Origin: Clostridiales bacterium
GTDB taxonomy: Bacteria; Bacillota; Clostridia; TANB77; CAG-508
Direction of reading: 5' to 3'
Assembly: GCA_003525075.1 (NCBI GenBank)
Contig: DQFO01000021.1
Span: 48,255 to 112,254 of the forward strand
DNA length: 64,000 nt
In this document: positions 8,816 through 32,198 of the stretch, piece after piece
How positions within the stretch are numbered: the first letter of the stretch is position 1
How the letters are laid out: each line of letters opens with the position of its first letter
Position numbers and translations under genes: made by a program
Notes under the pieces: model-generated
Seen by the model: the letters and a program-made list of their open reading frames with translations, nothing else
What the model was told of the DNA's origin: nothing
Databases searched by the model: none

Positions 8816-8900
8816 TTTTTTTAATAATGTATTCATAATATATTTATTAGGCAGAAGTATTATTCTTGGTTTTAGATATGTTTTGGTTTAAACATACATA

Positions 8901-8932
8901 AAGGCAGGAGTTGTGCTCCTGCCTTTATTTTA
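8901..8932. terminator. bidirectional Rho-independent terminator between sspA (+) and the cpsB-like gene (-)
   Basis: Perfect 10-bp stem aaggcaggag/ctcctgcctt with a 5-nt loop, followed by a T-rich tract. Confidence 0.7.
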
Positions 8933-9638
8933 TAATATCTTCATTATTTAAAACTTTTTGAGGATTAATTTCTGTAAATTCAATAAATTCTTCGTCTGAA
9001 ATAACTTTTTTTAATTTTTTAATAATTTTAGGAATTTTATTATATACTTGTTCTGGTTTATGGACATCTGATCCAAAAAAACTAATCAAATTATTTTTCA
9101 ATAAAATTTTTAATGTTTTTTTAGCTTTGCCACCATACATTCCTATTATACTACCAAAATTTGCTTGAAAAAGAGCTCCCATTTCTTCTAATTCAAATAA
9201 ATAATCTGGATTTTCTTGAACAAATGGATATCTTTCTGGATGAGCAATAATTGGTATATATCCATTTTCAATTAATCTATATATAACTTCTTTATCATTC
9301 ATAGGTTTTGTATTAATTAATGGAAATTCAAAAAGAACATATCTTGTATTATTTATAGATGATGCCTGTCCATTTTTTAATAAATCTATCATATTATTAG
9401 TAATATATATTTCATTTCCAAGGTATAATTCAATTCCATCAACAGAATCTTGTACCTCTTTTAATAATCGTTTTCTTTCTTGCTCATTACATTCATAATA
9501 ATTTTCCATATAATGTGATGTTGATATAATTTTGGTAAAACCTACATTTTTTGCTTCATTTACCATATAAATTGATTGTTCTAAATTTCTAGAACCATCA
9601 TCAATTCCTGGTAATATATGTGAATGAAAATCTATCAT
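8925..9638 (-). CDS. CpsB/YwqE-type PHP-domain protein-tyrosine phosphatase
   Basis: MIDFHSHILPGIDDGS N-terminus and conserved His/Asp pattern of Mn-dependent CpsB phosphatases. Lies downstream of the BY-kinase gene. Confidence 0.85.
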   Translation of the reverse strand: MIDFHSHILPGIDDGSRNLEQSIYMVNEAKNVGFTKIISTSHYMENYYECNEQERKRLLKEVQDSVDGIELYLGNEIYITNNMIDLLKNGQASSINNTRYVLFEFPLINTKPMNDKEVIYRLIENGYIPIIAHPERYPFVQENPDYLFELEEMGALFQANFGSIIGMYGGKAKKTLKILLKNNLISFFGSDVHKPEQVYNKIPKIIKKLKKVISDEEFIEFTEINPQKVLNNEDIIK

Positions 9639-9659: not shown

Positions 9660-10583
9660 TTAAAAGTCTTTCTTTTCTTCCTCTATTATTTTTTTCCAAT
9701 TATCTTTATCAATATTATTTCTTAACGCTTTTGGAACTTGTGTATTTTCTTGTCTTGTATTTTGTGAATTTCTATTGTTTGTTTCACTATGATTTCCATT
9801 TCTTTTTGAATTTTGTGATAAAGCATTTTGCGTTCTTTGTTGCAATTTTCTTCTTTCTGCTTCATAATCTGGTTGATTATTTTTTTGAACTGTTACATTT
9901 GAAGAATAATAATATGTTTGATTATATTTTTTACTGCTTACTGGAATTTTATTATAAACAACTCCTGCAACATTTCCACCAACATTTCTTACGTCTTTTA
10001 TTACTCTTTCTAAATCATCTTTTCTAGTTTGATTATGTGCTGATACTATTAGTGTAGAATCAACTATTCTTGATAATATAACAGAATCTGTTACAAGTTT
10101 TGATGGTGTTCCATCAATTATAACTAAATCAACTTGATTTTTTAATTGTTCTAATAAATTTCTCATTTGACGTCTTACAAGTAATTCTGATGGGTTTGGT
10201 GGAATATTTCCAGCTGGAATTATATATAAATTATTTACATCTGTTTGTTTCAAATATTTATCTATATTTACAGATTCTTGATTTTCATAATATCCTGACA
10301 AATAATTTGATAATCCCGGTCTTGGTTCAACTCCAAATATAGAATACAATCTTCCTTTTCTCATATCTGCATCTATTAATGCTACTCTTTTCCCTGCTTG
10401 TGCAAATGTTACTGCTAAATTTGAAGCAACCCAACTTTTGCCTTCTCCTGGCATTGTAGATGTAACTAACAAGCTTCTTAATCTTCTATTAGAATTCATA
10501 AATTGTATATTTGTTCTTAATGTTCTAAATGTTTCAGAAACAGGTGATTTTGGATCTAGATGTGTAACTAATTCTTTTCTCAT
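9660..10583 (-). CDS. CpsD/YwqD-type BY tyrosine kinase (cytoplasmic ATPase module), long low-complexity C-terminal tail
   Basis: Walker A' and A region SLLVTSTMPGEGKSWVASNLAVTFAQAGKRVALIDADMRKG. Walker B VIIDGTP. Y-rich tail YNQTYYYSS. Confidence 0.85.
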   Translation of the reverse strand: MRKELVTHLDPKSPVSETFRTLRTNIQFMNSNRRLRSLLVTSTMPGEGKSWVASNLAVTFAQAGKRVALIDADMRKGRLYSIFGVEPRPGLSNYLSGYYENQESVNIDKYLKQTDVNNLYIIPAGNIPPNPSELLVRRQMRNLLEQLKNQVDLVIIDGTPSKLVTDSVILSRIVDSTLIVSAHNQTRKDDLERVIKDVRNVGGNVAGVVYNKIPVSSKKYNQTYYYSSNVTVQKNNQPDYEAERRKLQQRTQNALSQNSKRNGNHSETNNRNSQNTRQENTQVPKALRNNIDKDNWKKIIEEEKKDF

Positions 10584-11334: not shown

Positions 11335-12174
11335 TTAATTATTTTGATTTTCTTCTTTTTTCTGTGAAAGTATAATAATTGCATAAATTACTACTAATAT
11401 AAAGTAAACTATAATAAATTTTCCTGCAATTATATTTATTTTACTTAATATGTCTTTGATTATTGTTACTACAATATTTGAAAATGCGTCATTAAAAATT
11501 TTTATTCCATCTATATTTACTTTTGATTTTATTACAGTTGTTATTGCTAATTGCATAACTGCTGAAGATAAAACAGCTGATTCTGTCCAAAATAATAGTT
11601 TTAAAATATCTTTAACATTTAATGCAATTACTCCAATAATACTTATTATTATTGCAATTATCAATATGTTTTGAACTTTTGTTATTTTTTGTGTTATTTT
11701 ACTATATTTTTCATTTATTGTGTTTTCATAGCTTGTACTTATTATTGTGTCTTTATATGATTGACAGATATGTTCTACAAATTCATCAATAGCTTTACTA
11801 TTACTTGATGTTCTAACGTTTTCTTTATCAATATTAGAATTTAAGTTATTTGATATTTCTGATGTATCAATCTTTTCATTTGTTCCTTCGTAAATATTTG
11901 ATAATATTATATTAATATCATTTTTTATTTTATCTTCTGTACATATATTTTTTATTACTTCTTCGTCAAGTCCTGATTGTCCTATGTAATTTTCAAAACC
12001 TGATTCTACAAGTTTATATGTTTCAGAATAAAAATTATTGTTTTCCATTTGTTCTAATACATATTCTTTGTTAAATATTGTTTTAAAAACAACACTTTTA
12101 ACTCCTATAAATGTGAAACTTAATGCAATAACTAGAACAAATATAAAATTTAAAATTTTCTTTCCTACTTTCAT
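11335..12174 (-). CDS. membrane protein of unknown function (N-terminal TM, extracellular domain, about 3 C-terminal TM helices)
   Basis: Hydropathy only. No recognisable family. Confidence 0.35.
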   Translation of the reverse strand: MKVGKKILNFIFVLVIALSFTFIGVKSVVFKTIFNKEYVLEQMENNNFYSETYKLVESGFENYIGQSGLDEEVIKNICTEDKIKNDINIILSNIYEGTNEKIDTSEISNNLNSNIDKENVRTSSNSKAIDEFVEHICQSYKDTIISTSYENTINEKYSKITQKITKVQNILIIAIIISIIGVIALNVKDILKLLFWTESAVLSSAVMQLAITTVIKSKVNIDGIKIFNDAFSNIVVTIIKDILSKINIIAGKFIIVYFILVVIYAIIILSQKKEENQNN

Positions 12175-12188
12175 CTTTTTATTCCTTT

Positions 12189-12815
12189 CTATTTTTCTAA
12201 TTTGGCATATACTACATATCTTTGTGTTGCATATCCAACATTGTTAAATGGATAACAAGTATACACCATTAGTATTTCTTCATCTCTTTGTATTGGAACT
12301 TTGTCCAAATCTGTTTCTTTTATTAATTGCATATCATAAATTTTGTAGTTATATTCTCCATATGTTGTTGTTACCTTTATTTCATCTCCAATTTGCAATT
12401 CAGAGAATCTTCTAAATACTTTTTTGGAATTGTGTCCCATGTATAATATAGAACCACCTTCACCTGGAAAATAACTTCCGCTTGAGTGTCCTACACCTTT
12501 CTTTAGTATTTCTAGTGTATCTCCAAAGTACACTGGTAAATTTGCTCCTATTCTCGGAATTTCAATTGTTGCATATTGGGTTCCATATTCTGGATAACTA
12601 TCAAGTGATTTTTTTTCTTCATCTATTGTTATTGGTTGTTGTTCTTTGTCTTTATTTATATTTATTGAGACTTTATTTGCTAACATAAATATATTTTCTA
12701 TTTCTGTCCCCCAACATATTTTTATAGCAAGAAATACTCCTATCACTATAAATATTGCAATTAAAATTGTTCCTATAGTTGATTTACATGCTTTTACCAC
12801 TTTTTCTTTTTGCAT
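12189..12815 (-). CDS. sortase (class A/D-like transpeptidase)
   Basis: N-terminal TM anchor. Catalytic His (LYMGHN), TLxTC-type Cys (LMVYTCYPF), and Arg 13 residues downstream (TQRYVV). Confidence 0.75.
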   Translation of the reverse strand: MQKEKVVKACKSTIGTILIAIFIVIGVFLAIKICWGTEIENIFMLANKVSININKDKEQQPITIDEEKKSLDSYPEYGTQYATIEIPRIGANLPVYFGDTLEILKKGVGHSSGSYFPGEGGSILYMGHNSKKVFRRFSELQIGDEIKVTTTYGEYNYKIYDMQLIKETDLDKVPIQRDEEILMVYTCYPFNNVGYATQRYVVYAKLEK

Positions 12816-12896
12816 ATGTAATACTCCTTTTTAATTCATAAAAAAATTATAACATTTTAGAACGTTTTATGCAAGAGTTTTTGCGTTCAAAATAAA

Positions 12897-12935
12897 AAAA
12901 TCTCCTGATTATTCAGAAGATTTTTATTTTACTAA
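12897..12935. terminator. bidirectional hairpin terminator downstream of the LAYTG-protein gene
   Basis: 9-bp stem with one mismatch (atctcctga/tcagaagat), flanked by A and T runs. Confidence 0.5.
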
Positions 12936-13462
12936 GCATTTACAATTCTTTTTCTTGCAACTACTGCTGATACAGCAACTAATGCTACTACTGTTGTAGC
13001 TAAAACTACTACGTTTACAACATTTCCTGTATAAGCTAATTTTCCATTAGTATTTGAAACTGTTTCTACTAATTTTCCATCATTGTTGTAAATAGCAACT
13101 GATTTTTTGTTGAAAACTAATTTTAAGTCAACAATTTTTGCTGCTTCTGTTGCAATTGATTTTACTTCATTTTTTTGAGCCTTTGTTAATTTGTCATAAT
13201 TTGTTACTCCAGCTTTTTCCATTACAGCTATTGCTTCATCAGCTTTTGTTAATATTTCATTTGCTTGAGCATCTGTTACTGGATTTTCTTTTAAATATCT
13301 TTCGATTTTTACTTTATCTGCTGAAGTCATTCCATATTTTGATCCTTTTGCATATAATTCATCAGCTAATGTTGATGATGTAGCAGCATTTACGCCTGTT
13401 GCTAAAGCCATTATTGTTATTATAGCTAATAAAGCTATTGTTAATGTCTTTTTCATTTTCAT
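12932..13462 (-). CDS. secreted, sortase-anchored protein with a C-terminal LAYTG sorting signal. Mostly helical, function unknown.
   Basis: Signal peptide. The C-terminus carries LAYTG, a hydrophobic stretch and a basic tail (ARKR). Confidence 0.6.
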   Translation of the reverse strand: MKMKKTLTIALLAIITIMALATGVNAATSSTLADELYAKGSKYGMTSADKVKIERYLKENPVTDAQANEILTKADEAIAVMEKAGVTNYDKLTKAQKNEVKSIATEAAKIVDLKLVFNKKSVAIYNNDGKLVETVSNTNGKLAYTGNVVNVVVLATTVVALVAVSAVVARKRIVNA

Positions 13463-13540
13463 TCTCCCTTTCTTCTTTTAAAATTTTCTTCTTCATTATA
13501 GCATTATATGTTTTTTTATGCAATACTTTTTTTGATTTTT

Positions 13541-14371
13541 TTATTTAATTTCGATATTTTTATATCTTATTAAACTTATTGTTCCAATAGCAACTGCTAC
13601 TAATACAATTAATGCTACTGTTGTTGCACCTGTTTTTGGTAATTCTTTTTCTTGTGATACTGTTGTGTCTTGTGTTGTTTTTTCTGTTGTATTATCTGTT
13701 TTTGCTGTATTTGTTATTATTTCTAATTCATCTTTTTTGTTATCATCTTTCGTTGTTTCTGTATTTTTTTGATCATCTTTCGTTGTTTCTGTATTTTTTT
13801 GTTCATCTTTTGTTTCTTCTGTTTTGTCTGCCTTTGGAACAACAGCTACTTGTGTTACTAATTTAGGTGTGTCATATTCATTTTTTCCATCTGTAAGTTC
13901 TTCAACTTTTAAAACAACTCCTGTTGTTGTTACATTTTCCAATCCTTCTTTGAATGTAAGTGTTATTTCTGCAACATCTTCACCATCTTTTGGTGTTCTA
14001 TTTGCTTCTACAAGAAGTCTACCAGATTCTTCACTAAATTGTACTGTATAACCGTTTAAAGCTTTTATATCATTTTGTGTTAATTGATTAAAATATACAT
14101 CACTATATTCAAAAATTCCCTTAAACATACATATTCCACTTGTATCTATTGACTCTAATTTATCATATCCTATTACTACTTTTACCTCTTTTGTTACATC
14201 TTCTACTTCAACTTTTTCTGTTGTCTTTAGTGTTATACTTGAGTCTTTTGAAGTTGATTCACTTGTTGTTTGTGTTGTTTGTTCTGTACTTTTTGTTTCG
14301 TCTGCAAATACATTAACTCCTACACTTATTAGCATCATTGCTATAATTATACTTGCTAATATTTTTTTCAT
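13541..14371 (-). CDS. LPKTG cell-wall-anchored protein carrying a cohesin-like domain and a Thr/Lys/Asp-rich repeat linker
   Basis: Signal peptide. GICMFKGIFEYSDVYFN and VQFSEESGRLL...TPKDGEDVAEITLTFK resemble the cohesin motifs GIANCDFVYSYDPNVLE and FLFAEDSG...ITKDGVFATIVAKVK. The C-terminus carries LPKTG, a TM segment and RYK. Confidence 0.6.
   Translation of the reverse strand: MKKILASIIIAMMLISVGVNVFADETKSTEQTTQTTSESTSKDSSITLKTTEKVEVEDVTKEVKVVIGYDKLESIDTSGICMFKGIFEYSDVYFNQLTQNDIKALNGYTVQFSEESGRLLVEANRTPKDGEDVAEITLTFKEGLENVTTTGVVLKVEELTDGKNEYDTPKLVTQVAVVPKADKTEETKDEQKNTETTKDDQKNTETTKDDNKKDELEIITNTAKTDNTTEKTTQDTTVSQEKELPKTGATTVALIVLVAVAIGTISLIRYKNIEIK
13741..13830. repeat. tandem ~30-bp direct repeats (about 3 copies, the third degenerate) inside the cohesin-protein gene. 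They encode TKD(E/D)QKNTET repeats.
   Basis: gatcatctttcgttgtttctgtattttttt occurs twice in tandem, followed by a diverged third copy. Confidence 0.8.
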
Positions 14372-14489
14372 TTTTCTTTTGCCTCCTTCTTTTTATTTAT
14401 CCATTAAATTGTAACATTTTTTGCCGTATTCGACAATATTTTTTTGTTTAAGTTTTTGTTACATTTGTGTTACAAAATTATTACAAAAA

Positions 14490-14535
14490 ATAAAACTTAG
14501 AATTGTCATTTTAAAACAATCAATTCTAAGTTTTT
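14490..14535 (-). terminator. Rho-independent terminator after the RloB-like gene
   Basis: Perfect 10-bp inverted repeat cttagaattg/caattctaag, followed on the minus strand by a U-run. Confidence 0.65.
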
Positions 14536-14537
14536 TC

Positions 14538-15197
14538 TTATAATATCTCACAATCATTTAGTATTTTTTCAATACTTTCATTTATTTCTAAATCTGGATT
14601 TTCTTTATAATAAATATATTTTCCATATTTTATTTGTTTGTTATATTCTTTGTTATGATCTCTTATTTTTTCAGCTCTTTTTATTGCATTTATAATATCT
14701 TCCAATGTAATTTGTTCAACTACTCTCTTAAAGTTTTTTTCTTCTTTATATTCATCAAGACTTTTAAAATCTTCATCAAATATTTCATTTATATATTTTA
14801 AATATTGTTTTTTATCTGTTAATGGTCCTTTTAAATCTTTTTTGTGCAAAATTATCCAAAGTTCAAATGTAAAATTACTATATCCTAATTTATATTTTAA
14901 ACTATTATTAATTTTCGAAACTTCTTTCATATCATCTAAAATCTTATGAAATTTTTTTACATCATCTTCTGAATCACTTTCATAATCACATAAATGATAT
15001 ACCTCTTCTTCAGTTATATTTGCTAATGTTTTGGCATATCTTGTTGGCATTAATTTTTTATGTTTTAATTTTACTGTACAAGTTGCTTTAGAACAGTTAT
15101 TAATTAATTTTTGTAAATAGTCTAAATACCAGCCTTCTGTATCTCCTTCAACAGAAAAATAATAATTTTTATTTGTTTTTAATTTTTTTGCACACAT
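14538..15197 (-). CDS. RloB-family protein (AbiLii-like, OLD/Toprim-related putative nuclease)
   Basis: The N-terminus YYFSVEGDTEGWYL matches the RloB motif hhhVCEGxxTExxYh. Immediately downstream of the AAA_21 ATPase gene with a 9-bp gap. Confidence 0.6.
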   Translation of the reverse strand: MCAKKLKTNKNYYFSVEGDTEGWYLDYLQKLINNCSKATCTVKLKHKKLMPTRYAKTLANITEEEVYHLCDYESDSEDDVKKFHKILDDMKEVSKINNSLKYKLGYSNFTFELWIILHKKDLKGPLTDKKQYLKYINEIFDEDFKSLDEYKEEKNFKRVVEQITLEDIINAIKRAEKIRDHNKEYNKQIKYGKYIYYKENPDLEINESIEKILNDCEIL

Positions 15198-15206
15198 TTA
15201 TATTTA

Positions 15207-16541
15207 TTACTTCCTTTCTTGATTCATATATTCTTCAAATATATCTGAAAAGTCAACATCAGTGATTGCACCATATTTGTTTATAAAATAATTTTTTAAA
15301 TAATTTTCTCCATTTCTTACTCCATTTTTTCCACTTGTTCCAAAATCTGATAATGAATATAATATACTTTCTTTTTCTTCTTTTTCTACAAATTTTATTT
15401 CATCTCTTCTAAAAAGATTTTTATTTAAGAAAATTGGATTATGTGTATTAAATATTAATTGAGCTCCATTTTTGTTTATTTCATCATTATGGAAAATTTT
15501 TATAAAACTCATTATTATCATTGGATGCAAAGACGCATCTAACTCATCTACTAATAATGTTGCACCTCTTTTCATTGTTGCCATCATAAGTGGAAAAATA
15601 TCTAATAATCTAAGTGTTCCAAATGACTCAAAAAACTCTGCTGGAACAACTATACCTTTTTCATCTATAGTTTTTATTACAGATACTGGAAATATTAAGT
15701 CTTTTTTATCTGTTATTGGATATGCTATTTTTTCAGATGTTAATCCAATTTCTTTTACAGCTTCATTTATTTGTGGATTAGAGAATAATTTTTTATTTGA
15801 ATTTTTTATATCTATTCTTGATTCTAAGTTTGGTGCATAATGTATTTTATCTGCATGATATATAATTCTTAGTTTATCTTGAAACCAATTTGTTATAATT
15901 TCATAAATCTTTTTACTATATAATGTTTTAAACATTACATTTAATAGTAATTCTTGTGGCTCTATATTTGAATTTATAATATCTTTTGCCACTTCTTCAT
16001 GAAAGTTTTCTATTAATAATTCTTTTTCTTTTAAATATTCTAAATTTTCTATTTGAATTTTTTCATTTCTTATATAAATATTATTTCCATCGATTTTAAG
16101 TTTTTCTTCTAATATTTTTCTTTTATCCTTTTCTTTAGATAATAATTTTTCTGTTAAAAAAGTTATACTATATTCAATTATCATATTATTAGTTAAAAAT
16201 TTTATATAAAAATATGTTGGTTCATTTTCTTTGCTGTCTATATGTGGTATAAAATCTAATTTTTCTGTTGCTATATTAATACTTGTTAAATCATCTGCAT
16301 CTTTTATATTTCCTCTTAATACGATTGCTTTAAATACTTGTAATCCACCTATTAAGTTTGTTTTTCCTGATGAGTTTGGTCCATATATAACAGATGATGA
16401 TAATGCTTTCTCTTCTTTGTTATTTGCTTTTTCTTTTAACAAACTATATTCTAAGTCTTTTATTTTTTGAGCTGGCGTCATTTTAAATTCAACTAAATTT
16501 CTAAATGATTTGAAATTTTTCATTTTAAATTCTAATAACAT
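15207..16541 (-). CDS. AAA_21/ABC-like ATPase (AbiLi/RloA-like)
   Basis: N-terminus MKNFKSFRNL. Walker A GPNSSGKTNL. Walker B and D-loop LLVDELDASLHP. Confidence 0.65.
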   Translation of the reverse strand: MLLEFKMKNFKSFRNLVEFKMTPAQKIKDLEYSLLKEKANNKEEKALSSSVIYGPNSSGKTNLIGGLQVFKAIVLRGNIKDADDLTSINIATEKLDFIPHIDSKENEPTYFYIKFLTNNMIIEYSITFLTEKLLSKEKDKRKILEEKLKIDGNNIYIRNEKIQIENLEYLKEKELLIENFHEEVAKDIINSNIEPQELLLNVMFKTLYSKKIYEIITNWFQDKLRIIYHADKIHYAPNLESRIDIKNSNKKLFSNPQINEAVKEIGLTSEKIAYPITDKKDLIFPVSVIKTIDEKGIVVPAEFFESFGTLRLLDIFPLMMATMKRGATLLVDELDASLHPMIIMSFIKIFHNDEINKNGAQLIFNTHNPIFLNKNLFRRDEIKFVEKEEKESILYSLSDFGTSGKNGVRNGENYLKNYFINKYGAITDVDFSDIFEEYMNQERK

Positions 16542-16723
16542 ATTTTACCCTTCTTTCGATTTTGCGAGTTTTTTGCAAAATCTATTATCATTTTACTATT
16601 ATTTTATGACATTGTCAATAAATTATTGCACATTTTATGTAAATTATAATATTTATTGTTACTAATTTTGTAAAATTATGTCACATCAATACTAAGCATT
16701 AGCGTAAATAAATATTTTTTAAT

Positions 16724-17860
16724 TTATTCAAAAATATCCTCTGTTATTATATCCCATAATAATTGCATTAAAACAGCTGTATCTCCTAAACACAAATAAT
16801 CAGAACTTTCATTATTAATGTGTGCAATATTATTTCTCATATTTAATTCGTTTGGATCAAATATTAAATTAAACAACTTTGTATATTGTTTTTTTATTAA
16901 AGAATTCGCATATGGTGAAACTATAACACTTCCAAGTGTTAATTTATTTTTTATCTTTTTATTATCTTTTTTATTAATATATTCATGCAAAATCAATAGT
17001 TTTATATCTTCATCTTCTTCATTGATAATACGATATTTTATAAACATTTTATAGATATTTGCTCTAATAAATTTTTCACTTGCAAATATTGTTTTATCTC
17101 CTTTTTCAGTAATAATATTATAATATTGTTTTTCTTCATCAGTTAATTTTATATTTTCTTTTTCAATTTTATCTTTTAATTCTTTCATTAAGTTTTTTAG
17201 GATTTTTGAATCTAATTGAATTATAAGAAATCTTTCTATTAATGTTGGTAATATGAATGCTGTTCCATATGCATGTTCATCTCTTATACATTCAATTTTA
17301 TTATTTGTTAATGGCTCTGCCATTGGAAATACTACACCTCTATATTCAATCATTCTTATAATTTGTAAATTTTGTTGTTTTTTAGGTGGATTTTCAAATA
17401 TTCCTTTATATTCATTTCCTTTTAATGTTTCAAAATATTCGTTTAATGCTCTTATATATATTTCATTAAATTTTATTGTTGCTTCATTTGTAATTATTGG
17501 TACTCTTTCTCTATATTCTTTTGCTATTAATTTTTTATGATAATTTATACATATATTTCCTAAATAATAAACTAAATCATTTATTTTTATTTTCTTTTTT
17601 ATAAGTTCGTCTTTTTCTTCTTTTGTTTCAAAGTGTCCTAATGGTTCTGGACATATTGTGTTTTTTGCATCATATTTTAGTATTTTATAAAATTCATCTA
17701 ATATTTCTAATTTTATATTTATTTCTTCGTTCTTACTTTTGGCTTTTATTAGTTTTTCTACTTTTTCATCAATGTATTTTAACATGGGTTCTGGATTGCT
17801 TAAATGTAATTGCATATTATTTAACATTACATATTCTTTTTGATATAAATATTCTTCCAT
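16724..17860 (-). CDS. hypothetical protein with a C-terminal HEPN-like Rx4H motif (possible Abi-type RNase)
   Basis: The C-terminus NMRNNIAHINNES fits the R[NHQ]xxxH HEPN motif. No other family signature. Has its own AGGAGG RBS. Confidence 0.35.
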   Translation of the reverse strand: MEEYLYQKEYVMLNNMQLHLSNPEPMLKYIDEKVEKLIKAKSKNEEINIKLEILDEFYKILKYDAKNTICPEPLGHFETKEEKDELIKKKIKINDLVYYLGNICINYHKKLIAKEYRERVPIITNEATIKFNEIYIRALNEYFETLKGNEYKGIFENPPKKQQNLQIIRMIEYRGVVFPMAEPLTNNKIECIRDEHAYGTAFILPTLIERFLIIQLDSKILKNLMKELKDKIEKENIKLTDEEKQYYNIITEKGDKTIFASEKFIRANIYKMFIKYRIINEEDEDIKLLILHEYINKKDNKKIKNKLTLGSVIVSPYANSLIKKQYTKLFNLIFDPNELNMRNNIAHINNESSDYLCLGDTAVLMQLLWDIITEDIFE

Positions 17861-17875
17861 ATTTTTCCTCCTATT

Positions 17876-17903
17876 TTAAAAGATGCAACATTATTTTGTT
17901 GCA
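17876..17903 (-). terminator. hairpin (terminator/attenuator) between the GH39-like gene and the HEPN-like gene
   Basis: Perfect 10-bp stem aagatgcaac/gttgcatctt with an 8-nt loop. It overlaps the GH gene stop and sits directly upstream of the RBS of the next gene. Confidence 0.5.
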
Positions 17904-20900
17904 TCTTGGTTTAATAACATTAATCTCATTTTTACTAAGTCTTTTAAATTAATTTTTCCGTCAAAATTGCAGTCTGCAGCTAGCATTTCATTTTCATCTA
18001 AATTATTTCCATCTAAGAAATACTTTCTTATTTTTACTAAGTCTTTTAAATTTAATTTTCCGTCTTTATTCAAGTCTCCTGTAACTATGAGTGTATATTT
18101 ATCTCCTGCTGATGTTGTTAATATATCTCCTGTTGCAATACTATCTGTATTAGAAATTTCTTTTTCATTTCTTGCTATTTTATATGTTATTCCTAATTTT
18201 AGTTTATTATCAAAATCTGATTTTATAGTTTGTTCTGATATGTTTTTTATTATATTGTCTTGAATAATATAATTTTGATTATTGTTTTCCATTATTTGGA
18301 ATGATATTTGTGTTTTGTTTCCTGCTTTGTCTATTACAGTTAATGTGTAAAAGCCTTCTTCTGTTAATGTTGTTCCTGATTTAAAGTTCTTTACTTCTTC
18401 ACCATTTAAAATTAGTTTTATAGTATCTATGTTTTCATCTGTTATTGTTGGTGTTATTTTGCTTGTGTATAGTTTTCCGTCTACTACTCCATTTATTATT
18501 GGTGATGTTTTGTCAATGTTTGTTACTTTTGCTGTTATTTGTTTTGCTTGTCCTTTTATTGTATATTCAAATGTAAAGCTTCCGTTTTGATCAAATACGT
18601 ATTCTTTACTATTTGAGTTGTTTGTTATTTGTATTTCTGCATTTGTTTTTATTGTTGCTTTTACAGATTTATTTGTTATGTTTGTTTCTGAATATTCTAT
18701 TGTTACTGGATTTTGAGCAATATATTCATTTATATTATTGTTTATTTGAATACTTGCAAATTTATTAGCCCAATTTGCTAATAATTGTGCATGTAAATTA
18801 TTGCTTATTATTAAACCTGCTTTGATGTCATTTTGTTCTTCTAAACTGTTTATATAATCGGATTTTTCATAACACTCTTTACTGAATTGCAATATTTTTG
18901 TTGGATATATTATTTCTACATCTGTATTAGTATTTATTAAATTTTCTGTTTCATCTATTTTTTGTTTTGTTGTTGTTAATTCTGATGAATCAACATTTGC
19001 TTCATCTAATGTTTTCATTACACTATTTATTGTATTGTTCACACTAACTGTTACTAGATCTTCATATGAATTTCCTATATCATTTATCATATCTAGCATT
19101 GAACTTATTTTTACTGGTTCTGCTTTTAATTGTCCTTCTTCATATGCTTTTAATATTATATCTCCTAGTTCGTAATGTCTTTTCATTGCTGTTATTGCTG
19201 TATTTTGCATTAATTTTTGTGTGTTTGCTACTGATTGACTATAATTTTGTCTTTGGTTTATTTTCTCTTCAAAACCTGAAATTTGTAATATTTCTGTTGC
19301 GAATTTTTCTTTGAATTCATCATATTTACTTGTTGCAACATTTGATATTGCTTTATAAAAATAATTATAGTCTACATCATACAAATAGACTGGAGATGTT
19401 GTTATTGTTAATTTTCCGTTTTCGTCTGGTTGTATGTCTTTTCCATATAGGTCTTTTGCAGTAAAATCTTTATAATCTATTTGTATATTATTTGTACTGT
19501 TTTCTGACCATGTTATTATTATTGGCTTTCCGCCTTTGTCATATACATGTCCTTCTAGTCCTTCTGCTATGTTTACTGTTCCTATGTATTCAGCTCCATT
19601 TGTATTTTGAAGATAATTTTTCATTGCATAGTATGTTTTTTTGGGTAAATTTTTCTTATCTATTAAACCATACTGAGAATTATCAAAATCATCAATAAAA
19701 TTATAAAGAAATGAATAATCTATTCCTTGTTTTTCATTAGTTATTGTCTGCTCTATTATTCTTTCACCCCTAATATCTTCATTCTCAACAACTCTACTAT
19801 TTATTCCATACTCTGTTATATACAGTCTTTGAAATCCTCCAAGTTCATTAATTATACTTTTATGACTATTATTCTTATCCTTTAGCCATTTCATATTTTC
19901 AGAAGACGAATATACATGATACGAAAAAGCCTTTGAATTTACATATGCCCCATTATTGGCAATTTCTTGTATATATTGTTCAGATTTTTCAGTCTGATAT
20001 GGAGTTGCAGTTGCCCCTGAAACAACATTATTAAAATTCAAACAATTTACCTTTTGAACCATTAATGAATACCAATTCATTGCTTGATTAGAAAACCACT
20101 TTACATTAGGCTCATTCCAAATCTCAACTCCTATAATTTTATTTCCATAATATTTTTTTACTTCATTTGCATACTCTAAAAAATTTTTAAGTTCATTTTC
20201 ATTTGAAATCTGGTAATCATTTCCTAACCTTTTAGATGTATTATCAAATAAAATAACCAGAATGTTAATTCCACTACTTTTAATCTTTTCAAACCAATTG
20301 TCAATTTTTTCAAAATTATATTTTTTATTATTTTCTATTTGATTCCATTGAATCGAATTTCGTATATTTTTTATTCCTAAATTTCTTAACAATTCAAAAC
20401 TATTATTAATATCATCATATCCTTCAATATAATGTGTTCCTATTCCTATACATGATAATTCATCTAAAAACTGCTTTTCATATGGTTTAATAATATAAAC
20501 ATTTCGTAGAAACTCTACTTTTTTTTCATTATTCATATAAATATATATCTTTAGTTCTTTTTTTCCTTCATCGCTTTCTAAAATTTTAAATTGATTTTTG
20601 ACTTTTTTCAATTCTATTTCTTCTTTTAATGTTTCATCAAGAAATATTTTTGCCATATAACTATTTTCTGAATTATAGTTTTCTATGCTTATATAACCAT
20701 TAATTTCATTATTATATATTACTTCTTTTGTAGTTAACTCTATTGTATATATTATTTCCTCTGAAACAGTTTGATATAACTCAAAAATATTATAAACTTT
20801 TATTTTTTTTTCTTCATTTCCTTCCTCAATTGAAATATGTCCATTTAACACAAAGAAAAATAATGTTGGAAAAAACCAAACTATAGCAAATAGTATTATA

Positions 20901-21019
20901 ATTACTTTTATCATTTGTTTCTTATTTATCTTTCCTATTCCTAGTAAATCCATTTTTTTCCCTTCAATTAATAAAACTATCTTTGATATTATTATATATA
21001 TTTTTTTTATTTTTTTCAA
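17891..21019 (-). CDS. large secreted/membrane-anchored glycoside hydrolase (clan GH-A, GH39/PslG-like) with beta-rich middle domains and a C-terminal type-I dockerin
   Basis: The IGVEIWNEPNVKWF motif carries the clan GH-A acid/base 'NEP'. N-terminal TM. The C-terminus has two Ca-binding repeats, DLNKDGKLNLKD and DCNFDGKINLKD, typical of dockerin. Confidence 0.6.
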   Translation of the reverse strand: MKKIKKIYIIISKIVLLIEGKKMDLLGIGKINKKQMIKVIIILFAIVWFFPTLFFFVLNGHISIEEGNEEKKIKVYNIFELYQTVSEEIIYTIELTTKEVIYNNEINGYISIENYNSENSYMAKIFLDETLKEEIELKKVKNQFKILESDEGKKELKIYIYMNNEKKVEFLRNVYIIKPYEKQFLDELSCIGIGTHYIEGYDDINNSFELLRNLGIKNIRNSIQWNQIENNKKYNFEKIDNWFEKIKSSGINILVILFDNTSKRLGNDYQISNENELKNFLEYANEVKKYYGNKIIGVEIWNEPNVKWFSNQAMNWYSLMVQKVNCLNFNNVVSGATATPYQTEKSEQYIQEIANNGAYVNSKAFSYHVYSSSENMKWLKDKNNSHKSIINELGGFQRLYITEYGINSRVVENEDIRGERIIEQTITNEKQGIDYSFLYNFIDDFDNSQYGLIDKKNLPKKTYYAMKNYLQNTNGAEYIGTVNIAEGLEGHVYDKGGKPIIITWSENSTNNIQIDYKDFTAKDLYGKDIQPDENGKLTITTSPVYLYDVDYNYFYKAISNVATSKYDEFKEKFATEILQISGFEEKINQRQNYSQSVANTQKLMQNTAITAMKRHYELGDIILKAYEEGQLKAEPVKISSMLDMINDIGNSYEDLVTVSVNNTINSVMKTLDEANVDSSELTTTKQKIDETENLINTNTDVEIIYPTKILQFSKECYEKSDYINSLEEQNDIKAGLIISNNLHAQLLANWANKFASIQINNNINEYIAQNPVTIEYSETNITNKSVKATIKTNAEIQITNNSNSKEYVFDQNGSFTFEYTIKGQAKQITAKVTNIDKTSPIINGVVDGKLYTSKITPTITDENIDTIKLILNGEEVKNFKSGTTLTEEGFYTLTVIDKAGNKTQISFQIMENNNQNYIIQDNIIKNISEQTIKSDFDNKLKLGITYKIARNEKEISNTDSIATGDILTTSAGDKYTLIVTGDLNKDGKLNLKDLVKIRKYFLDGNNLDENEMLAADCNFDGKINLKDLVKMRLMLLNQDATK

Positions 21020-21027: not shown

Positions 21028-22440
21028 TTAATTTATATTTTTTACTTTTTTGCCTATAACTTTTTTAAATTCTATTAACAATTCTTTATTTACAATAATT
21101 GCATACAATATACATAAAAGCAAATTAATTACATTTAGGGCTATATTGTTGTATAAATATAATACTACTACTAATATAAATATAATAGAATTTACTACTA
21201 TATTTTTTATAGGAATTTTCACTTTCACATACTTTTGAACATCAATATATCTATATATAGCTAACAACATATAAGATACTAATGTTGATATTGCTGCTGC
21301 ATAAATACCAATAACTTTTATCAATGCTATATCTATAGTTAAATTTATTATTGCTGCTATCATTGTGGTTTTCGCTACTTCTTTTGTCATTTTCTTTGCA
21401 ACATAGATTGATCCTATTAATCCAATTAATACACTAAAAATATTGGCTAACAACAATATTGGTACATATTTATAGGCTTCTCGATATGAATCTTTTATTA
21501 AAAGTTCAAATACAAATGGTAAACATGCAAGTATTCCTATACAAAAACAAATAAATAGGTTAAAAACTTTATTTATTACATTCGAAAAAAATTCATCCTT
21601 ATCTGTATCATTAATATGTAATGCTGCTGATTCTTGCCATGATAAGTTAAATATATTAAATATACTTGATAATATATTTGAAAATTTACACGATACAGAA
21701 TATATTCCATTTGCTGCAACACCTAAAGCATACGAAATTATAGTTCTATCTGATACATGTACAATCCACCAAGATAACTCATTCGGTATCATAGGTATTG
21801 AATATTTTAGCAAATCCTTTATGAGTTTCTTATCTATATATTTTATCTTTACATTTTTTAAAATTTTATTAACTATTAATAAATATATTGTACAAATAAT
21901 ATTAGAAATTAAACTAGCTATTAAAACATATTTACCATTTTTATGAAATCCCACCAAGAAAATCAAGTTTAATACAATAGTAACAATTGCTGCAATTATG
22001 CTAGAAAATGAATATTGCTTATTTTTTCCTATTCCTCTAACTATTTGTAATAAAAATGTTAATACACTTAAAGAAATTAAATTCATTACAATTAATATAC
22101 TATACTTTATCGAAAATATCTTTACTGCAACCGCAAATAATATAGTTGATATTATAAGTTCTACAAACATTATAAATATACCATTTGTTATAATTTTATT
22201 TTTTTCTTCTTCGCTTTTTCTTGCATCTATTAAAAACCTAAATATCCCAGCATCAATTTTTAGTAAAATTAATGGAATAAAGAAAGTTAAATATGTTTGT
22301 ATTAAATCAATATATCCATAATCTTCTGTTGACAAAAAATGTGTATATAATGGCAATAACAATAATGTTATAAATTGCGTACAAAATTTTCCTATAAATA
22401 TAATTATTGTATTTTTCACTAATTCTTTATTTTTATTCAA
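21028..22440 (-). CDS. Wzx-type oligosaccharide flippase (MOP/PST family)
   Basis: About 12-14 TM helices with a PST-family N-terminus. Confidence 0.7.
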   Translation of the reverse strand: MNKNKELVKNTIIIFIGKFCTQFITLLLLPLYTHFLSTEDYGYIDLIQTYLTFFIPLILLKIDAGIFRFLIDARKSEEEKNKIITNGIFIMFVELIISTILFAVAVKIFSIKYSILIVMNLISLSVLTFLLQIVRGIGKNKQYSFSSIIAAIVTIVLNLIFLVGFHKNGKYVLIASLISNIICTIYLLIVNKILKNVKIKYIDKKLIKDLLKYSIPMIPNELSWWIVHVSDRTIISYALGVAANGIYSVSCKFSNILSSIFNIFNLSWQESAALHINDTDKDEFFSNVINKVFNLFICFCIGILACLPFVFELLIKDSYREAYKYVPILLLANIFSVLIGLIGSIYVAKKMTKEVAKTTMIAAIINLTIDIALIKVIGIYAAAISTLVSYMLLAIYRYIDVQKYVKVKIPIKNIVVNSIIFILVVVLYLYNNIALNVINLLLCILYAIIVNKELLIEFKKVIGKKVKNIN

Positions 22441-22450
22441 TTTATCTCTC

Positions 22451-23632
22451 CTACTTTTTATCTCTAATTTTTATTAATTTTTCTCTTATTTCTTTAGGAA
22501 ATATCCATGCAGTATCATTAAAAATTAAAGAAATCTTTCTTTTTAGTGGCATATTTTTTTCTCTAATATATTTCTTAACTGTATCATCATAACCAGCCAG
22601 AAAATAATTTTTCCAAAATTCATTATATAATTTATTTTTTTGAAAAGGTTTTCTCAAGCATTGATTACCTTTTGCCGCTTCTTCAAATGTTTTTTCAATA
22701 TAAACAATTCTTTCTTTTATTTTATAAAAATACTCTTCTCCAACCTTTGTATTTACCATAACCAATGATATTCCTTTTTCTGTATTTCTATTTTTAAAGC
22801 TTTCTGATATATATCCCCAAAAATCTGCTAATGTAATATCACTAACTCTATCTTTACCAGTATATTTACATTCACAACAAACCTCATTAGTAATATAGTC
22901 TTCTAAAAATGCTCTAATATACTCATCTTTGTATGTGGTATTAGAATATGAACTTCCATTTTTATAATCTATTTTCATACTAAATATTGTCCAACTTGGC
23001 TTTTTATATCTAAATTTTATGTTTGATATTTCATTACCATTATGCCTTTTCTTATACTCCTCAAATATCATTGGTGATGGAACTCCATGACACAAAACAT
23101 CCACTGTTATCAAATTATTATATTTTTTATTCAAAAAATTTTTTAATCCTGCTATTTGACATGCCACTCCACTAAATAAAACTTTTCTTCCTTCATCTAA
23201 ATATTTCTTTACTATTTTAAATGAATCACCAATATAACTTTGTACATATTTTGATCCTCTTGTTTTTTGTAAATCTTCTTTATTAGTTAATATTCCATGT
23301 ACAACCTTAAAATTTTCATCATATATAGCTCCTACTACAATTCCATCTTCTTCCAAAACTTTCTTTGCAATCTCTGAAAAAATACCTCCTGAAGTGCTTT
23401 CTTCTCTTTCTATTTCAGAATTACTCCAAGCAGCATATACTACTTTGTTTTCTTTTTTTTCAGCTAAATTATTCTGTGGACATGTTATAACACATTTCTT
23501 ACATTTTTTACATTTTTCTTCAATAATATGTGGTTCATAAAAACCTTTCTCATTTTGTATTATTTCTATTGCATTAAATGGACAAGCATTATAGCAAGCC
23601 ATACAACCTGTACATTTTTCAGTTATATTCAT
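22451..23632 (-). CDS. coenzyme F420 hydrogenase/dehydrogenase beta-subunit-like protein with 2x[4Fe-4S] ferredoxin domain (partner of a polysaccharide pyruvyl transferase)
   Basis: CxxCxxC...CP and CKKCKKCVITCP cluster motifs, followed by FrhB-like N- and C-terminal domains. Confidence 0.7.
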   Translation of the reverse strand: MNITEKCTGCMACYNACPFNAIEIIQNEKGFYEPHIIEEKCKKCKKCVITCPQNNLAEKKENKVVYAAWSNSEIEREESTSGGIFSEIAKKVLEEDGIVVGAIYDENFKVVHGILTNKEDLQKTRGSKYVQSYIGDSFKIVKKYLDEGRKVLFSGVACQIAGLKNFLNKKYNNLITVDVLCHGVPSPMIFEEYKKRHNGNEISNIKFRYKKPSWTIFSMKIDYKNGSSYSNTTYKDEYIRAFLEDYITNEVCCECKYTGKDRVSDITLADFWGYISESFKNRNTEKGISLVMVNTKVGEEYFYKIKERIVYIEKTFEEAAKGNQCLRKPFQKNKLYNEFWKNYFLAGYDDTVKKYIREKNMPLKRKISLIFNDTAWIFPKEIREKLIKIRDKK

Positions 23633-23643
23633 ATAATAATCAC

Positions 23644-24786
23644 CTATATTTCTTCAAATTTTTCTTTTAGTTTATCATAATAATGTGTTCTAAAATATTC
23701 TGGTAAAACTTTGTAATCTTTTTTGTTTCTATAAATATCTTCTGCTAATTTCTGAGCTTCTTCTAAAGATTGAGCAAAAAATATATATCCTTTAAATTCT
23801 TCCTTATCTTTAAACCAATCCACTCCTGAAGATAACTTATGATCTGTTGAATTAATTACAATAGTTGGTGTATTAGAAGCTAAACTAAATATCGTTCCAT
23901 GATATCGGTCGGTAATTACTACTTTATACTTAGAAAATTGTTCTATTGTATTTTCTATAATTGATTTTAACTCTTTCTTTAATTCTGTATATTTTGTTGA
24001 AATTGTTGTATCTATTCTATCAACTTTAGTAATCTTCTTTAATTCTGACATCATTTTATCTATATCTTCATTCTCATATAATTTTTCGCCATCTCTTCTC
24101 ATACAACATAAAATTCCTTCTCTTGGTGAATTAAATTGGTATGTTCCTATTAGTGATGTAACTATATCTGGATATAATTCCACACAATTATTCACGTAAC
24201 TTTTCTTAGCCATTTCATATGATTTTTTATCTCTCGCTAAAAATAACAGTCTTTTTCCTAATTTATATGCCTCCTTAGATTCTTCTAATTCTTTATCAGA
24301 TTTAAAATTAATTGTCTGTGGAAAAACCAATATTTTATTTTCAGAAAACATTTTTATTATTTTTCTGTGTGCATATTCTCCTTTTATATTAGCTACATCT
24401 GTTGTTCTATATCCACTTTGAAAAATGATTATATCTTCTTTATTTATAATTTTTTTTATAACTTTATTAATATTTAGAAAGTTAGAATTTATTAAAATAT
24501 CAGGCATTTCAATTACTTTAAAATTTGAATAGTTATTTGATAGCCACTTTGATATACAATAATATTGTGCTTGATCTCCTAAATTTGAATGTAATGGAAT
24601 TCCTACATATAATACCTTAGAATCTTCAGCTTTAACTGTCTTTAACTGTTTTTTTATTTTTTTATATTCTCTAAACTTTATTGGTATTCTTTTAATATAA
24701 CTCCATACACTTCCTATTTTTTTTAATATATTATATATCCATTCATTTTTCTGTTTTATTTTTCTTTTTATTTCATAAACTTCCAT
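23644..24786 (-). CDS. polysaccharide pyruvyl transferase family protein (CsaB/WcaK-like)
   Basis: LGDQAQYYCISKWL matches the PS_pyruv_trans N-terminal motif. Adjacent to the FrhB-like gene. Confidence 0.7.
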   Translation of the reverse strand: MEVYEIKRKIKQKNEWIYNILKKIGSVWSYIKRIPIKFREYKKIKKQLKTVKAEDSKVLYVGIPLHSNLGDQAQYYCISKWLSNNYSNFKVIEMPDILINSNFLNINKVIKKIINKEDIIIFQSGYRTTDVANIKGEYAHRKIIKMFSENKILVFPQTINFKSDKELEESKEAYKLGKRLLFLARDKKSYEMAKKSYVNNCVELYPDIVTSLIGTYQFNSPREGILCCMRRDGEKLYENEDIDKMMSELKKITKVDRIDTTISTKYTELKKELKSIIENTIEQFSKYKVVITDRYHGTIFSLASNTPTIVINSTDHKLSSGVDWFKDKEEFKGYIFFAQSLEEAQKLAEDIYRNKKDYKVLPEYFRTHYYDKLKEKFEEI

Positions 24787-24817
24787 TTTTATTTTATCCT
24801 TTCTAATTAAAGTACTT

Positions 24818-28194: not shown

Positions 28195-28206
28195 GTTTCC
28201 TCCATT

Positions 28207-29319: not shown

Positions 29320-29328
29320 TTTTTTCTC

Positions 29329-30390: not shown

Positions 30391-30406
30391 AAAAGCTCCT
30401 CTTTTA

Positions 30407-31477: not shown

Positions 31478-31478
31478 T

Positions 31479-32171
31479 TTATCTAGCTCCTTCTTTCTTT
31501 AAAACTGACAATATAGTCTTGAAAAACACTTTTATATCCATTTTCAAAGATAAATTATCTATGTAATACAATTCCATTTCCATTCTTTGTTCATATGTAG
31601 TATTACTTCTACCATTGGCAGCCCAATATCCTGTTAATCCAGGAGTAACACTTAAAAATTTATCTTTATTTACTCCATATTTTTCCAACTCATCTGCCAC
31701 TACTGGTCTAGGTCCAATTATTGATAAATCCCCATTAATTATATTTATAAGTTGTGGCAATTCATCCAAACTTGTTTTTCTTAGAAATTTACCAACTTTA
31801 GTTATTCTTGGATCATTTGTCAATTTATAGTTTTCCTTATATTCTCTCATTTGTTCTGGTGTAAATGATTTTATTAATTCTTCTGCATTTATTACCATAG
31901 ATCTAAATTTATATAATTTTATAATCTTTCCATTTTTTCCAATTCTTTTATGTGCAAAAAAAACTGGTCCCTTTGAATCTATTTTTATTGCTATTGCAAT
32001 TATAGCAAATAATGGTGATAATAATATAAGTGCTACACTCGCCAAAATTACATCAATCACTCTTTTTATTTTTATATATACTTTTTTACTAATTTTTGTT
32101 TTAACATCGCTTTGGGTTCTTAAGCTTGTTGTTTCTATATTTTCTGTTGTTTCACCAGTTATAATATTCAT
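31479..32171 (-). CDS. bacterial sugar transferase (PF02397-type undecaprenyl-phosphate sugar-1-phosphate transferase, short form)
   Basis: KIDSKGPVFFAHKRIGKNGKIIKLYKFRSM...DELPQLINIINGDLSIIGPRP. Confidence 0.85.
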   Translation of the reverse strand: MNIITGETTENIETTSLRTQSDVKTKISKKVYIKIKRVIDVILASVALILLSPLFAIIAIAIKIDSKGPVFFAHKRIGKNGKIIKLYKFRSMVINAEELIKSFTPEQMREYKENYKLTNDPRITKVGKFLRKTSLDELPQLINIINGDLSIIGPRPVVADELEKYGVNKDKFLSVTPGLTGYWAANGRSNTTYEQRMEMELYYIDNLSLKMDIKVFFKTILSVLKKEGAR

Positions 32172-32198
32172 TCTTATCCCCCTTATAAAATAAATATT

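Follow-up and report, generated by a model that had tools for sequence, protein, structure and literature searches.

In a 64-kb stretch of DNA (the window; 64,000 nucleotides of contig DQFO01000021.1, ~25% GC) from an uncultured gut Clostridia bacterium, a secreted single-cohesin protein with an LPKTG sorting signal and a modular glycosidase with a C-terminal dockerin are encoded in the same polysaccharide locus. It is probable that the cohesin, linked to the cell wall, captures the dockerin of the hydrolase and holds a PslG-like catalytic head in the envelope, where this head would cut the polysaccharide made by its own locus. This reading is carried by the domain identities of both proteins, by the adjacency and correlated divergence of the two partners across related loci, and by the exchange of the catalytic head along with the serotype-variable genes. 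The open reading frames (ORFs) and motifs of the sortase, the LPKTG protein and the hydrolase, which an earlier note on this DNA had listed, all exist as described there, and every gene of the region is on the minus strand.

The cohesin-LPKTG protein

The first partner is a small secreted protein with the following features (aa, amino acids).

13541..14371 (-): single-cohesin protein of 276 aa, secreted and with a sorting signal; its signal peptide spans aa 1-23 (MKKIL...NVFA/DE)
13838..14242 (-): divergent cohesin domain (aa 44-178)
13734..13822 (-): tandem repeat of 30 bp x 3.0 with 89% matches (TRF score 136), encoding a T/K/D/E-rich stalk between the cohesin and the LPKTG motif
13628..13642 (-): LPKTG (aa 244-248), followed by a 20-residue hydrophobic segment, ATTVALIVLVAVAIGTISLI, and then RYKNIEIK

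The protein thus holds all elements of a sortase substrate, namely an LPXTG motif, a hydrophobic segment, a positively charged tail and an N-terminal signal peptide. Of 69 relatives, at least 90% share P245 and G248, and the hidden Markov models (HMMs) for sorting signals score slightly below their cut-offs (Gram_pos_anchor, 16.9 against 20 bits; TIGR01167, 14.9 against 15.9). An exhaustive HMMER search yielded 102 representatives with the same layout of a signal peptide, a domain of ~130 aa, a low-complexity linker and an LPxTG motif. The repeat unit of the stalk is TKD(D/E)QKNTET (10 aa). Proteins of 256, 266, 276 and 286 aa occur among strains and in metagenomes, which points to a varying copy number.

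For the cohesin assignment, the domain of aa 44-178 was searched alone to exclude matches driven by the linker or the anchor, with E-values calibrated to a database of 1.8e9 sequences. In this way, 23 relatives were found to be significant (E<1e-3), and 15 of these 23 isolated domains match the Pfam Cohesin model, the best at 3.4e-12. One relative, P0257, scores 26.0 against the gathering cut-off of 24.1 and matches the window domain at E 7e-6. When the profile of the 23 domains was compared with the PDB, the top matches were cohesins only, including Clostridium cellulolyticum CipC (1g1k, E 9.6e-5), 2vn5, OlpA (3ul4) and Clostridium perfringens NagJ, which links the domain to bona fide cohesins through intermediates and through the profile. 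The profile alignments also reproduced the motif correspondences on which the earlier note had based its cohesin claim: the block LEYD..F aligns with L.YD..LE of cohesin structures and IA.ITL.LK with FA.I.FK.K. In addition, the domain has the nine-stranded flattened beta-sandwich (jelly-roll) of the cohesin fold, the fold match is specific, and the structures nearest to it belong to cohesins from C. perfringens glycosidases that bind dockerins. Because 15 of the 23 relatives match Pfam Cohesin and the fold match is specific, the resemblance to cohesins is not due to chance, and the claim stands. By profile and modelled fold, the domain of the LPKTG protein is a cohesin in fold and family, from a subclade that is too diverged for the Pfam model. 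Sequence searches of Pfam, NCBIfam and the PDB with the full LPKTG protein brought up little beyond low-complexity matches to interferon-gamma and similar proteins, which were rejected as composition artefacts of the T/K/D/E linker.

The cohesin domain evolves quickly. Between the window and the related locus L001, its identity is 42%, against 76% for the dockerin, 95% for the stalk of the hydrolase, 83% for Wzz and 87% for CpsD, and no other piece of the conserved 3' block evolves nearly as fast. Diversifying selection acting on a protein exposed at the surface would fit such divergence.

The hydrolase and its dockerin

The second partner measures 1042 aa when read from a TTG codon. The probable true start, M23 (ATG at 20951..20953, 1020 aa), is the one chosen by gene callers and found in the main homologue cluster. 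The hydrolase family comprises at least 137 homologue clusters of ~1000-1200 aa, nearly all of which carry the Pfam Dockerin_1 domain (PF00404). The domain structure was derived from a full-length AlphaFold2 (AF2) model (pLDDT 86, pTM 0.71), which was compared with known structures using Foldseek.

17891..21019 (-): modular glycosidase ending in a dockerin; 1042 aa if read from TTG, 1020 aa from the probable start M23
20849..20923 (-): N-terminal hydrophobic stretch (aa 33-57), modelled by AF2 as a helix of 25 residues; either an uncleaved signal peptide or a signal anchor
20492..20839 (-): N-terminal beta-sandwich (aa 61-176; AF2), which co-aligns with the N-terminal sandwich of the glycoside hydrolase family 39 (GH39) structure 5jvk (520 columns)
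19601..20464 (-): PslG-like GH39 (beta/alpha)8 barrel (aa 186-473), from the profile against the PDB, AF2 and Foldseek
20105..20119 (-): WNEPN (aa 301-305), with E303 as the acid/base
19805..19819 (-): ITEYG, with E403 as the nucleophile
19379..19591 (-): beta-sandwich after the barrel (aa 477-547; AF2); its block NTNGAEYIG...HVYDKDGKP is better conserved in the family than any other
18713..19366 (-): bundle or stalk of seven long helices (aa 552-769; pLDDT >90)
18083..18703 (-): three small beta (Ig-like) domains (aa 773-979; AF2), part of the constant stalk and ~99% identical in the contig L033
17897..18079 (-): type-I dockerin (aa 981-1041), whose two Ca-binding loops of 12 residues each lie at 18041..18076 and 17939..17974

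The earlier note had likened the catalytic head to PslG and GH39, and this was borne out. A profile of 25 family members retrieved PslG from the PDB over the full barrel (5bx9/4zn2, E 3.5e-24, 88 bits), followed by the GH39 structures 5jvk (E 1.4e-15) and 1px8 (E 1.5e-8), and the other families of clan GH-A matched more weakly (E at least 3e-7). The top three Foldseek matches of the model are 5jvk (E 3.3e-21, TMt 0.70) and PslG (TMt 0.69-0.71). The NEPN and TE(Y/W)G motifs of the family align with WNEPN and TEWG of PslG, and N302, E303 and E403 are invariant in the 25 sequences, so that the acid/base glutamate on strand 4 and the nucleophile on strand 7 are both in place. The barrel is followed by the appended beta-sandwich. 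By profile and by modelled fold, the head is PslG-like and falls in GH39/clan GH-A.

The N-terminal hydrophobic stretch is conserved in position across the hydrolase homologues. The earlier note had contrasted the tethered enzyme with the soluble or lipid-anchored hydrolases of other exopolysaccharide (EPS) loci; this contrast was overstated, as the hydrolase itself has an N-terminal membrane helix. Such a helix has been reported for PslG as well.

The C-terminal dockerin was confirmed by Pfam (PF00404, aa 981-1031, 33.2 bits against a gathering cut-off of 22.9) and by matches of the hydrolase C-terminus to the PDB dockerins 6kg9 and 3ul4 (E ~2e-4). Its two loops, DLNKDGKLNLKD (aa 982-993) and DCNFDGKINLKD (aa 1016-1027), follow the pattern D-x-N-x-D-G-x-x-N-x-x-D, and the D, N, D, G and D positions are invariant or almost so across the homologues. 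The AF2 model shows the module as three helices, of which those at 991-1003 and 1025-1041 come after the loops. PF00404 is matched by 22 of the 25 family members.

Three hydrolase paralogues lack the dockerin (L022:7547-11452, L024:9944-13792 and L029:9677-13414). These proteins have a right-handed beta-helix (PF13229), and their C-terminus consists of [LI]PLAG, a transmembrane (TM) segment and a K/R-rich tail, which may serve as a direct sortase or membrane anchor. Their genes are located where a different polysaccharide locus ends, and neither a cohesin gene nor Wzz, CpsD or CpsB follows downstream. The comparison suggests two alternative ways of anchoring, one direct and one through cohesin and dockerin. 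A further dockerin protein was observed a few kb 3' of another related locus (L010:18014-19552, +). This protein of 512 aa has a signal peptide and a highly symmetric C-terminal dockerin (DVNKDGKITSSDYVLIKDYIM twice), and its body looks by eye like a cell-wall hydrolase of the glucosaminidase/SH3 type. From its sequence, it suggests that other envelope enzymes of this lineage are also tethered by dockerins.

Probable pairing of cohesin and dockerin

Related loci were gathered with the hydrolase alignment, using one genome per species. This resulted in 29 species-level loci, all from metagenome-assembled genomes of uncultured gut Clostridia, such as Clostridium sp. 26_21 and Clostridium sp. CAG:273. 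A locus was taken as informative when its hydrolase carries a dockerin and the sequence extends at least 1.8 kb downstream (n=21), and the cohesin was sought in these loci with an HMM of the cohesin domain. A cohesin-LPxTG ORF lies downstream of the dockerin hydrolase on the same strand in 20 of these 21 loci. Its start, taken from the stop-to-stop frame, is found 19-184 bp past the hydrolase stop in 15 of the 20; in the others, the distance is 0.6-6 kb and the ORF stands behind inserted genes. The hydrolases of these loci are just ~40% identical to that of the window. Within the 64 kb of the window, there is exactly one cohesin ORF and exactly one dockerin ORF.

The divergence of the two modules is also correlated. 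Over 18 pairs, the pairwise divergence of cohesin and dockerin gives r = 0.876. Against the central region of the hydrolase, r is 0.66 for the cohesin and 0.70 for the dockerin, and against the catalytic domain 0.26 and 0.20, respectively. When the central region is controlled for, a partial correlation of 0.77 between cohesin and dockerin is left (permutation p = 0.0002). Furthermore, two dockerin classes can be distinguished, the first with ...DGK-x-N-[LIV]-K-D-[LI]-[VI]-K and the second with ...DGKVT-[TVA]-[YF]-D-L-S-T and 13 residues in its second loop. Two cohesin classes correspond to them one-to-one, and this division follows the clades. Adjacency, correlated divergence and matched classes are supportive of a functional pair, short of proof. 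Judging from synteny and co-variation, this cohesin most likely binds the dockerin in a Ca2+-dependent manner.

Several observations weigh against the proposed pair and its role. The Pfam Cohesin model (PF00963) matches neither the full window protein (E<=1) nor its isolated domain (E<=0.1), and the closest subclade of the window domain is mostly without such a match. Likewise, Pfam Glyco_hydro_39 (PF01229) matches neither the window hydrolase (E<=1) nor any of the 25 relatives (E<=0.01). One informative locus, L021, encodes a dockerin hydrolase with no cohesin within 10 kb and has flippase-like and mannose-6-phosphate isomerase-like genes instead. Other cohesins or dockerins could exist in the genome outside the 64-kb window. 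Linkage and shared ancestry could partly explain both the adjacency and the correlated divergence, and in most loci a distance of just ~100 bp separates the dockerin codons from the cohesin gene. The N-terminal helix may retain the enzyme in the membrane, in which case the dockerin would not be needed for mere retention. Finally, the finding that none of the three dockerin-less loci has a cohesin was considered as strong covariation and then downgraded to weak evidence, as the three loci form one clade in a different genomic context.

The missing direct Pfam match, the cohesin-free locus L021 and the rapid evolution of the cohesin domain, as for an exposed antigen, also fit a reading without any partnership. 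The LPKTG protein would then be an independent adhesin or variable antigen with a cohesin fold, the dockerin would bind a different partner encoded elsewhere in the genome or be no more than a stabilising module that binds Ca2+, and the adjacency would reflect locus architecture. Orphan dockerins are reportedly common outside cellulosomes, which also counts for this reading. It is nevertheless improbable in view of an adjacency kept in 20 of 21 loci across such divergent hydrolases, the single cohesin and single dockerin in 64 kb, a partial correlation that goes beyond the hydrolase stalk, the one-to-one match of the classes, and the nearest structures being cohesins that bind dockerins.

Exchange of the catalytic head and the likely substrate

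The hydrolase gene sits between the genes for the flippase Wzx and for Wzz, CpsD and CpsB, and its two ends differ in their evolution. The catalytic domain and Wzx are 91% and 97% identical between L001 and the window, 58% and 73% for L003, and 57% and 82% for L004. In L002, these values fall to 33% and 25%, and the stalk and Wzz are still 93% and 90% identical. Catalytic-domain identity therefore tracks Wzx, whereas the stalk and dockerin track the conserved downstream genes.

The clearest case is the metagenomic contig L033 from the same species, with the hydrolase at L033:1305-4481 (+) and a cohesin protein identical to that of the window. The last ~320 aa of this hydrolase, dockerin included, are ~99% identical to the window protein. 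Its first ~590 aa are unrelated; they form a Glyco_hydro_42-like barrel with a DUF4832 domain, and the gene adjoins a different Wzx. Since the head is swapped on a constant stalk, the recombination breakpoint of the serotype-variable region must lie inside the hydrolase gene.

The head thus changes with the polysaccharide and the anchoring module stays constant, which argues that the head is matched to the product of its own locus, as PslG is to Psl. From the locus position and the co-variation of head and Wzx, the head would be expected to hydrolyse the cognate exopolysaccharide. The same pattern argues against nutrient harvesting, in which the tethered glycosidase would act as a miniature cellulosome that breaks down glycans of the diet or the host at the cell surface, in the manner of amylosomes and cellulosomes. 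Harvesting is the classical use of cohesin-dockerin systems, GH39 and GH42-like heads are known from gut glycan degraders, and the best structural match, 5jvk, comes from Bacteroides. This role is very unlikely for the present pair, given that the gene always stands between Wzx and Wzz/CpsD/CpsB, that the head is replaced along with the serotype region, that the top sequence match is the EPS-operon enzyme PslG, and that the window encodes no transporter and no further dockerin-bearing carbohydrate-active enzyme.

The sortase and the LAYTG triad

A sortase is encoded close to the cohesin gene, together with two further proteins.

12189..12815 (-): class-D-like sortase, 208 aa, with a TM helix, H128, VYTC with C187, and R199; Pfam Sortase 97.1 bits
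12932..13462 (-): 176-aa secreted protein (p176) with its own sorting signal: LAYTG (13025..13039), a TM segment and RKR
11335..12174 (-): 279-aa membrane protein, the third member of the triad with p176 and the sortase

According to the earlier note, the sortase lies between the two partner genes and is dedicated to the cohesin protein. The first point was not confirmed, as the sortase is downstream of both genes and an AbiL-containing insertion separates them. The second point is doubtful. The sortase is encoded two genes downstream of the cohesin gene, and the cohesin signal in loci with the triad is LPK[TA]G, LPATG, LPSTG or IPK[TA]G, against mostly LPQTG in loci without it; these two facts speak for a dedicated enzyme. 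This difference between K and Q signals coincides with the two clades. In addition, the triad is present in 13 loci, where the sortase co-occurs with p176 in 13 of 13. The p176 C-terminus consists of KLAYTGN, a TM segment and RK(R/K), with KLAYTGN invariant in 12 of the 13. Eight loci have the cohesin-LPxTG gene without the triad or any local sortase, and L021 has the triad without a cohesin. For these reasons, the locus sortase is more likely dedicated to the LAYTG protein than to the cohesin protein, and p176 is likely its cognate substrate. The cohesin protein may be anchored by the locus sortase, by a housekeeping sortase, or by both.

The top class models of NCBIfam for the sortase are of the D type, although below their cut-offs (sortase_SrtD, 135.6 against 140 bits; class_D, 122.4 against 165 bits). 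Signals of the LAxTG type are usually ascribed to class E sortases, so that the pairing of a class-D-like sortase with a LAYTG substrate is unusual. The p176 and 279-aa proteins have no sequence match in Pfam, NCBIfam, PADLOC or the PDB, and the homologue search with p176 returned only unnamed proteins of the same lineage. Only two terminator-like hairpins were found on the coding strand, one after the p176 gene (12896..12925) and one after CpsB (8898..8928). The former (minus strand), 13 pairs followed by a T-run, stands between the p176 and sortase genes and may be an attenuator giving a high ratio of substrate to sortase.

The polysaccharide locus and the insertion

The setting in a polysaccharide locus, as claimed before, holds for both partner genes. 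The region from ~38.2 kb down to 8.9 kb, in the transcribed direction, is a Wzx/Wzy-type polysaccharide (capsule/EPS) locus. On the transcribed strand, the order is hydrolase, 378-aa protein, AbiLi, AbiLii, cohesin protein, p176 and sortase, followed 3' by the 279-aa membrane protein and then Wzz, CpsD and CpsB.

21028..38167 (-): upstream biosynthetic part, in the order TagF-like/Wzy fusion, 511-aa protein, LCP ligase, VanZ, priming sugar transferase, acyltransferase, GT2
within 21028..38167 (-): the same part, continued with pyruvyl transferase and FrhB-like protein, GT4, EpsG-type polymerase, second pyruvyl transferase/FrhB-like pair, Wzx
21028..22440 (-): Wzx flippase, directly 5' of the hydrolase gene
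14538..17860 (-): insertion between the partner genes (378-aa protein, AbiLi and AbiLii), not part of the system
16724..17860 (-): 378-aa protein, part of the insertion
15207..16541 (-): AbiLi (AAA_21 ATPase), PADLOC 234.5 bits, Pfam AAA_21 105.7 bits
14538..15197 (-): AbiLii (RloB), PADLOC 46.7 bits, Pfam RloB 52.2 bits
10583..11299 (-): Wzz, conserved 3' end of the polysaccharide locus, syntenic in related loci
9660..10583 (-): CpsD tyrosine kinase, conserved 3' end, syntenic in related loci
8925..9638 (-): CpsB phosphatase, conserved 3' end, syntenic in related loci

The first gene of the upstream part (35555..38167, -) encodes a protein of 870 aa in which a CDP-glycerol glycerophosphotransferase (TagF-like, PF04464) is fused to an O-antigen polymerase Wzy (PF14296). 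Together with the EpsG-type polymerase (24818..25879), this gives two polymerase candidates in the locus. Two pairs of a polysaccharide pyruvyl transferase (PF04230) and an FrhB/FdhB-like 4Fe-4S protein are present (22451..24786 and 26992..29319, -), which suggests that the repeat unit is doubly pyruvylated or otherwise ketal-modified. A promoter scan of this AT-rich DNA resulted in 107 sites against 106.6 expected, i.e., no excess.

AbiLi and AbiLii form the gene pair that defines the AbiL abortive-infection system. The 378-aa protein beside them has no sequence match in Pfam, NCBIfam, PADLOC or the PDB. The insertion is missing from L001, where the cohesin ORF starts ~770 bp past the hydrolase stop, and from most related loci, where this distance is 19-184 bp. 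The AbiLi/AbiLii pair has also been found in L002 and in all four contigs of the same species (L030-L033).

Proposed mechanism

In the reading favoured here, the cohesin protein would be exported through its signal peptide, which would be cleaved at NVFA/DE, and would be linked covalently to peptidoglycan by a sortase acting on LPKTG. Its stalk of 10-aa repeats would carry the cohesin through the wall. The hydrolase would also be exported, and its dockerin would bind the cohesin in the presence of Ca2+. The tethered head could then trim or release the LCP-linked, pyruvylated polymer of the locus, or clear misassembled polymer, by analogy with PslG and Psl. The serotype-specific head would be exchanged by recombination together with Wzx and the glycosyltransferases, leaving the hydrolase stalk, the dockerin and the cohesin as a constant anchoring module.

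The N-terminal helix allows this reading to be refined. If the helix were an uncleaved anchor and the dockerin were plugged into the cohesin, the enzyme would form a strut from membrane to wall, with the bundle and Ig-like domains spanning the wall and placing the head by Wzy/LCP. This is possible, though on the unlikely side. A 25-residue helix without a clear AxA site is present in all homologues, a stalk of ~430 residues separates head and dockerin in the AF2 model, and the dockerin-less paralogues are also tethered at two ends, through an N-terminal helix and the C-terminal LPLAG and TM segment. However, the L-N-G/H that follows the helix is a permissible cleavage site.

A broader picture is put forward tentatively, as somewhat short of an even chance. 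In this picture, the wall cohesin is a fixed socket and the stalk-dockerin a fixed plug, onto which serotype-matched heads (GH39-like, or GH42-like with DUF4832) are swapped; the enzyme, held by its membrane helix and its dockerin, spans the wall and determines how long the capsule polymer becomes or whether it is released. If true, this would be the first cohesin-dockerin pair serving the biogenesis of the cell's own envelope, rather than substrate degradation or toxin assembly.

Comparison with known systems

Cohesin-dockerin pairs are textbook parts of cellulosomes. To our knowledge, few cases outside cellulosomes have been described, and these are without a clear physiological role. The pair described here is conserved in abundant, uncultured Clostridia of the human gut (at least 20 lineages at the species level) and would give such modules a concrete job, that of holding a PslG-like hydrolase in a Gram-positive envelope. 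The varied heads on one stalk and dockerin, changing with the serotype, can be seen as natural modular enzyme engineering, with relevance for capsule diversity, phage and immune escape, and surface-display design. If binding is confirmed, the two predicted specificity classes would provide new orthogonal pairs for synthetic biology.

PslG from the psl operon of Pseudomonas aeruginosa (5bx9, 4zn2) is the closest sequence-profile match of the hydrolase, is among its top three structural matches and has the same NEP/TE pair. Both enzymes consist of a barrel with a C-terminal beta-sandwich and an N-terminal hydrophobic helix, and both are encoded inside a polysaccharide operon. Unlike PslG, the hydrolase belongs to a Gram-positive host, is ~600 residues longer (helical bundle, Ig-like domains and dockerin) at ~16-17% identity, is paired with a cohesin predicted to be wall-anchored, and has a head that is exchangeable between strains; it is known here from sequence and model. 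Other depolymerases from Gram-positive polysaccharide operons are Listeria PssZ (GH8) and Bacillus anthracis CapD (a gamma-glutamyl transpeptidase), whose catalytic families are unlike that of the present hydrolase. They resemble the proposed system in that an enzyme from the biosynthetic operon is retained in the envelope and cuts the cell's own extracellular polymer. We know of no cohesin-dockerin tether described for either of them.

The closest cohesin structures come from the non-cellulosomal pairs of C. perfringens, i.e., the cohesins of the GH33 sialidase (2vo8) and of the GH84 enzyme NagJ (2w1n, 2jh2, 2o4e and 2ozn). In that bacterium, cohesins and dockerins are carried by secreted toxins and enzymes that assemble together, whereas here the cohesin stands alone on a stalk with a sortase signal and its putative client is an enzyme of an EPS locus. 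A sortase-anchored protein with a single cohesin is also known from Ruminococcus flavefaciens, the anchoring scaffoldin ScaE (PDB 2zf9). ScaE anchors a multi-enzyme cellulosome that degrades plant cell walls, via adaptor scaffoldins. In contrast, the present system is a one-to-one pair in a capsule locus without cellulosomal enzymes in the window, and no cellulase, carbohydrate-binding module or multi-cohesin scaffoldin, which would mark a cellulosome or its anchoring scaffoldin, is encoded in the 64 kb.

A literature search returned nothing that links PslG with dockerins, or dockerins with hydrolases of capsule or EPS loci. The components each have a precedent, in operon-encoded EPS hydrolases and in non-cellulosomal cohesin-dockerin pairs, and for their combination none was found in this search. 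What appears to be new is therefore the combination itself: a conserved one-to-one pair within a capsule/EPS locus, in which exchangeable heads are carried on a constant stalk and dockerin.

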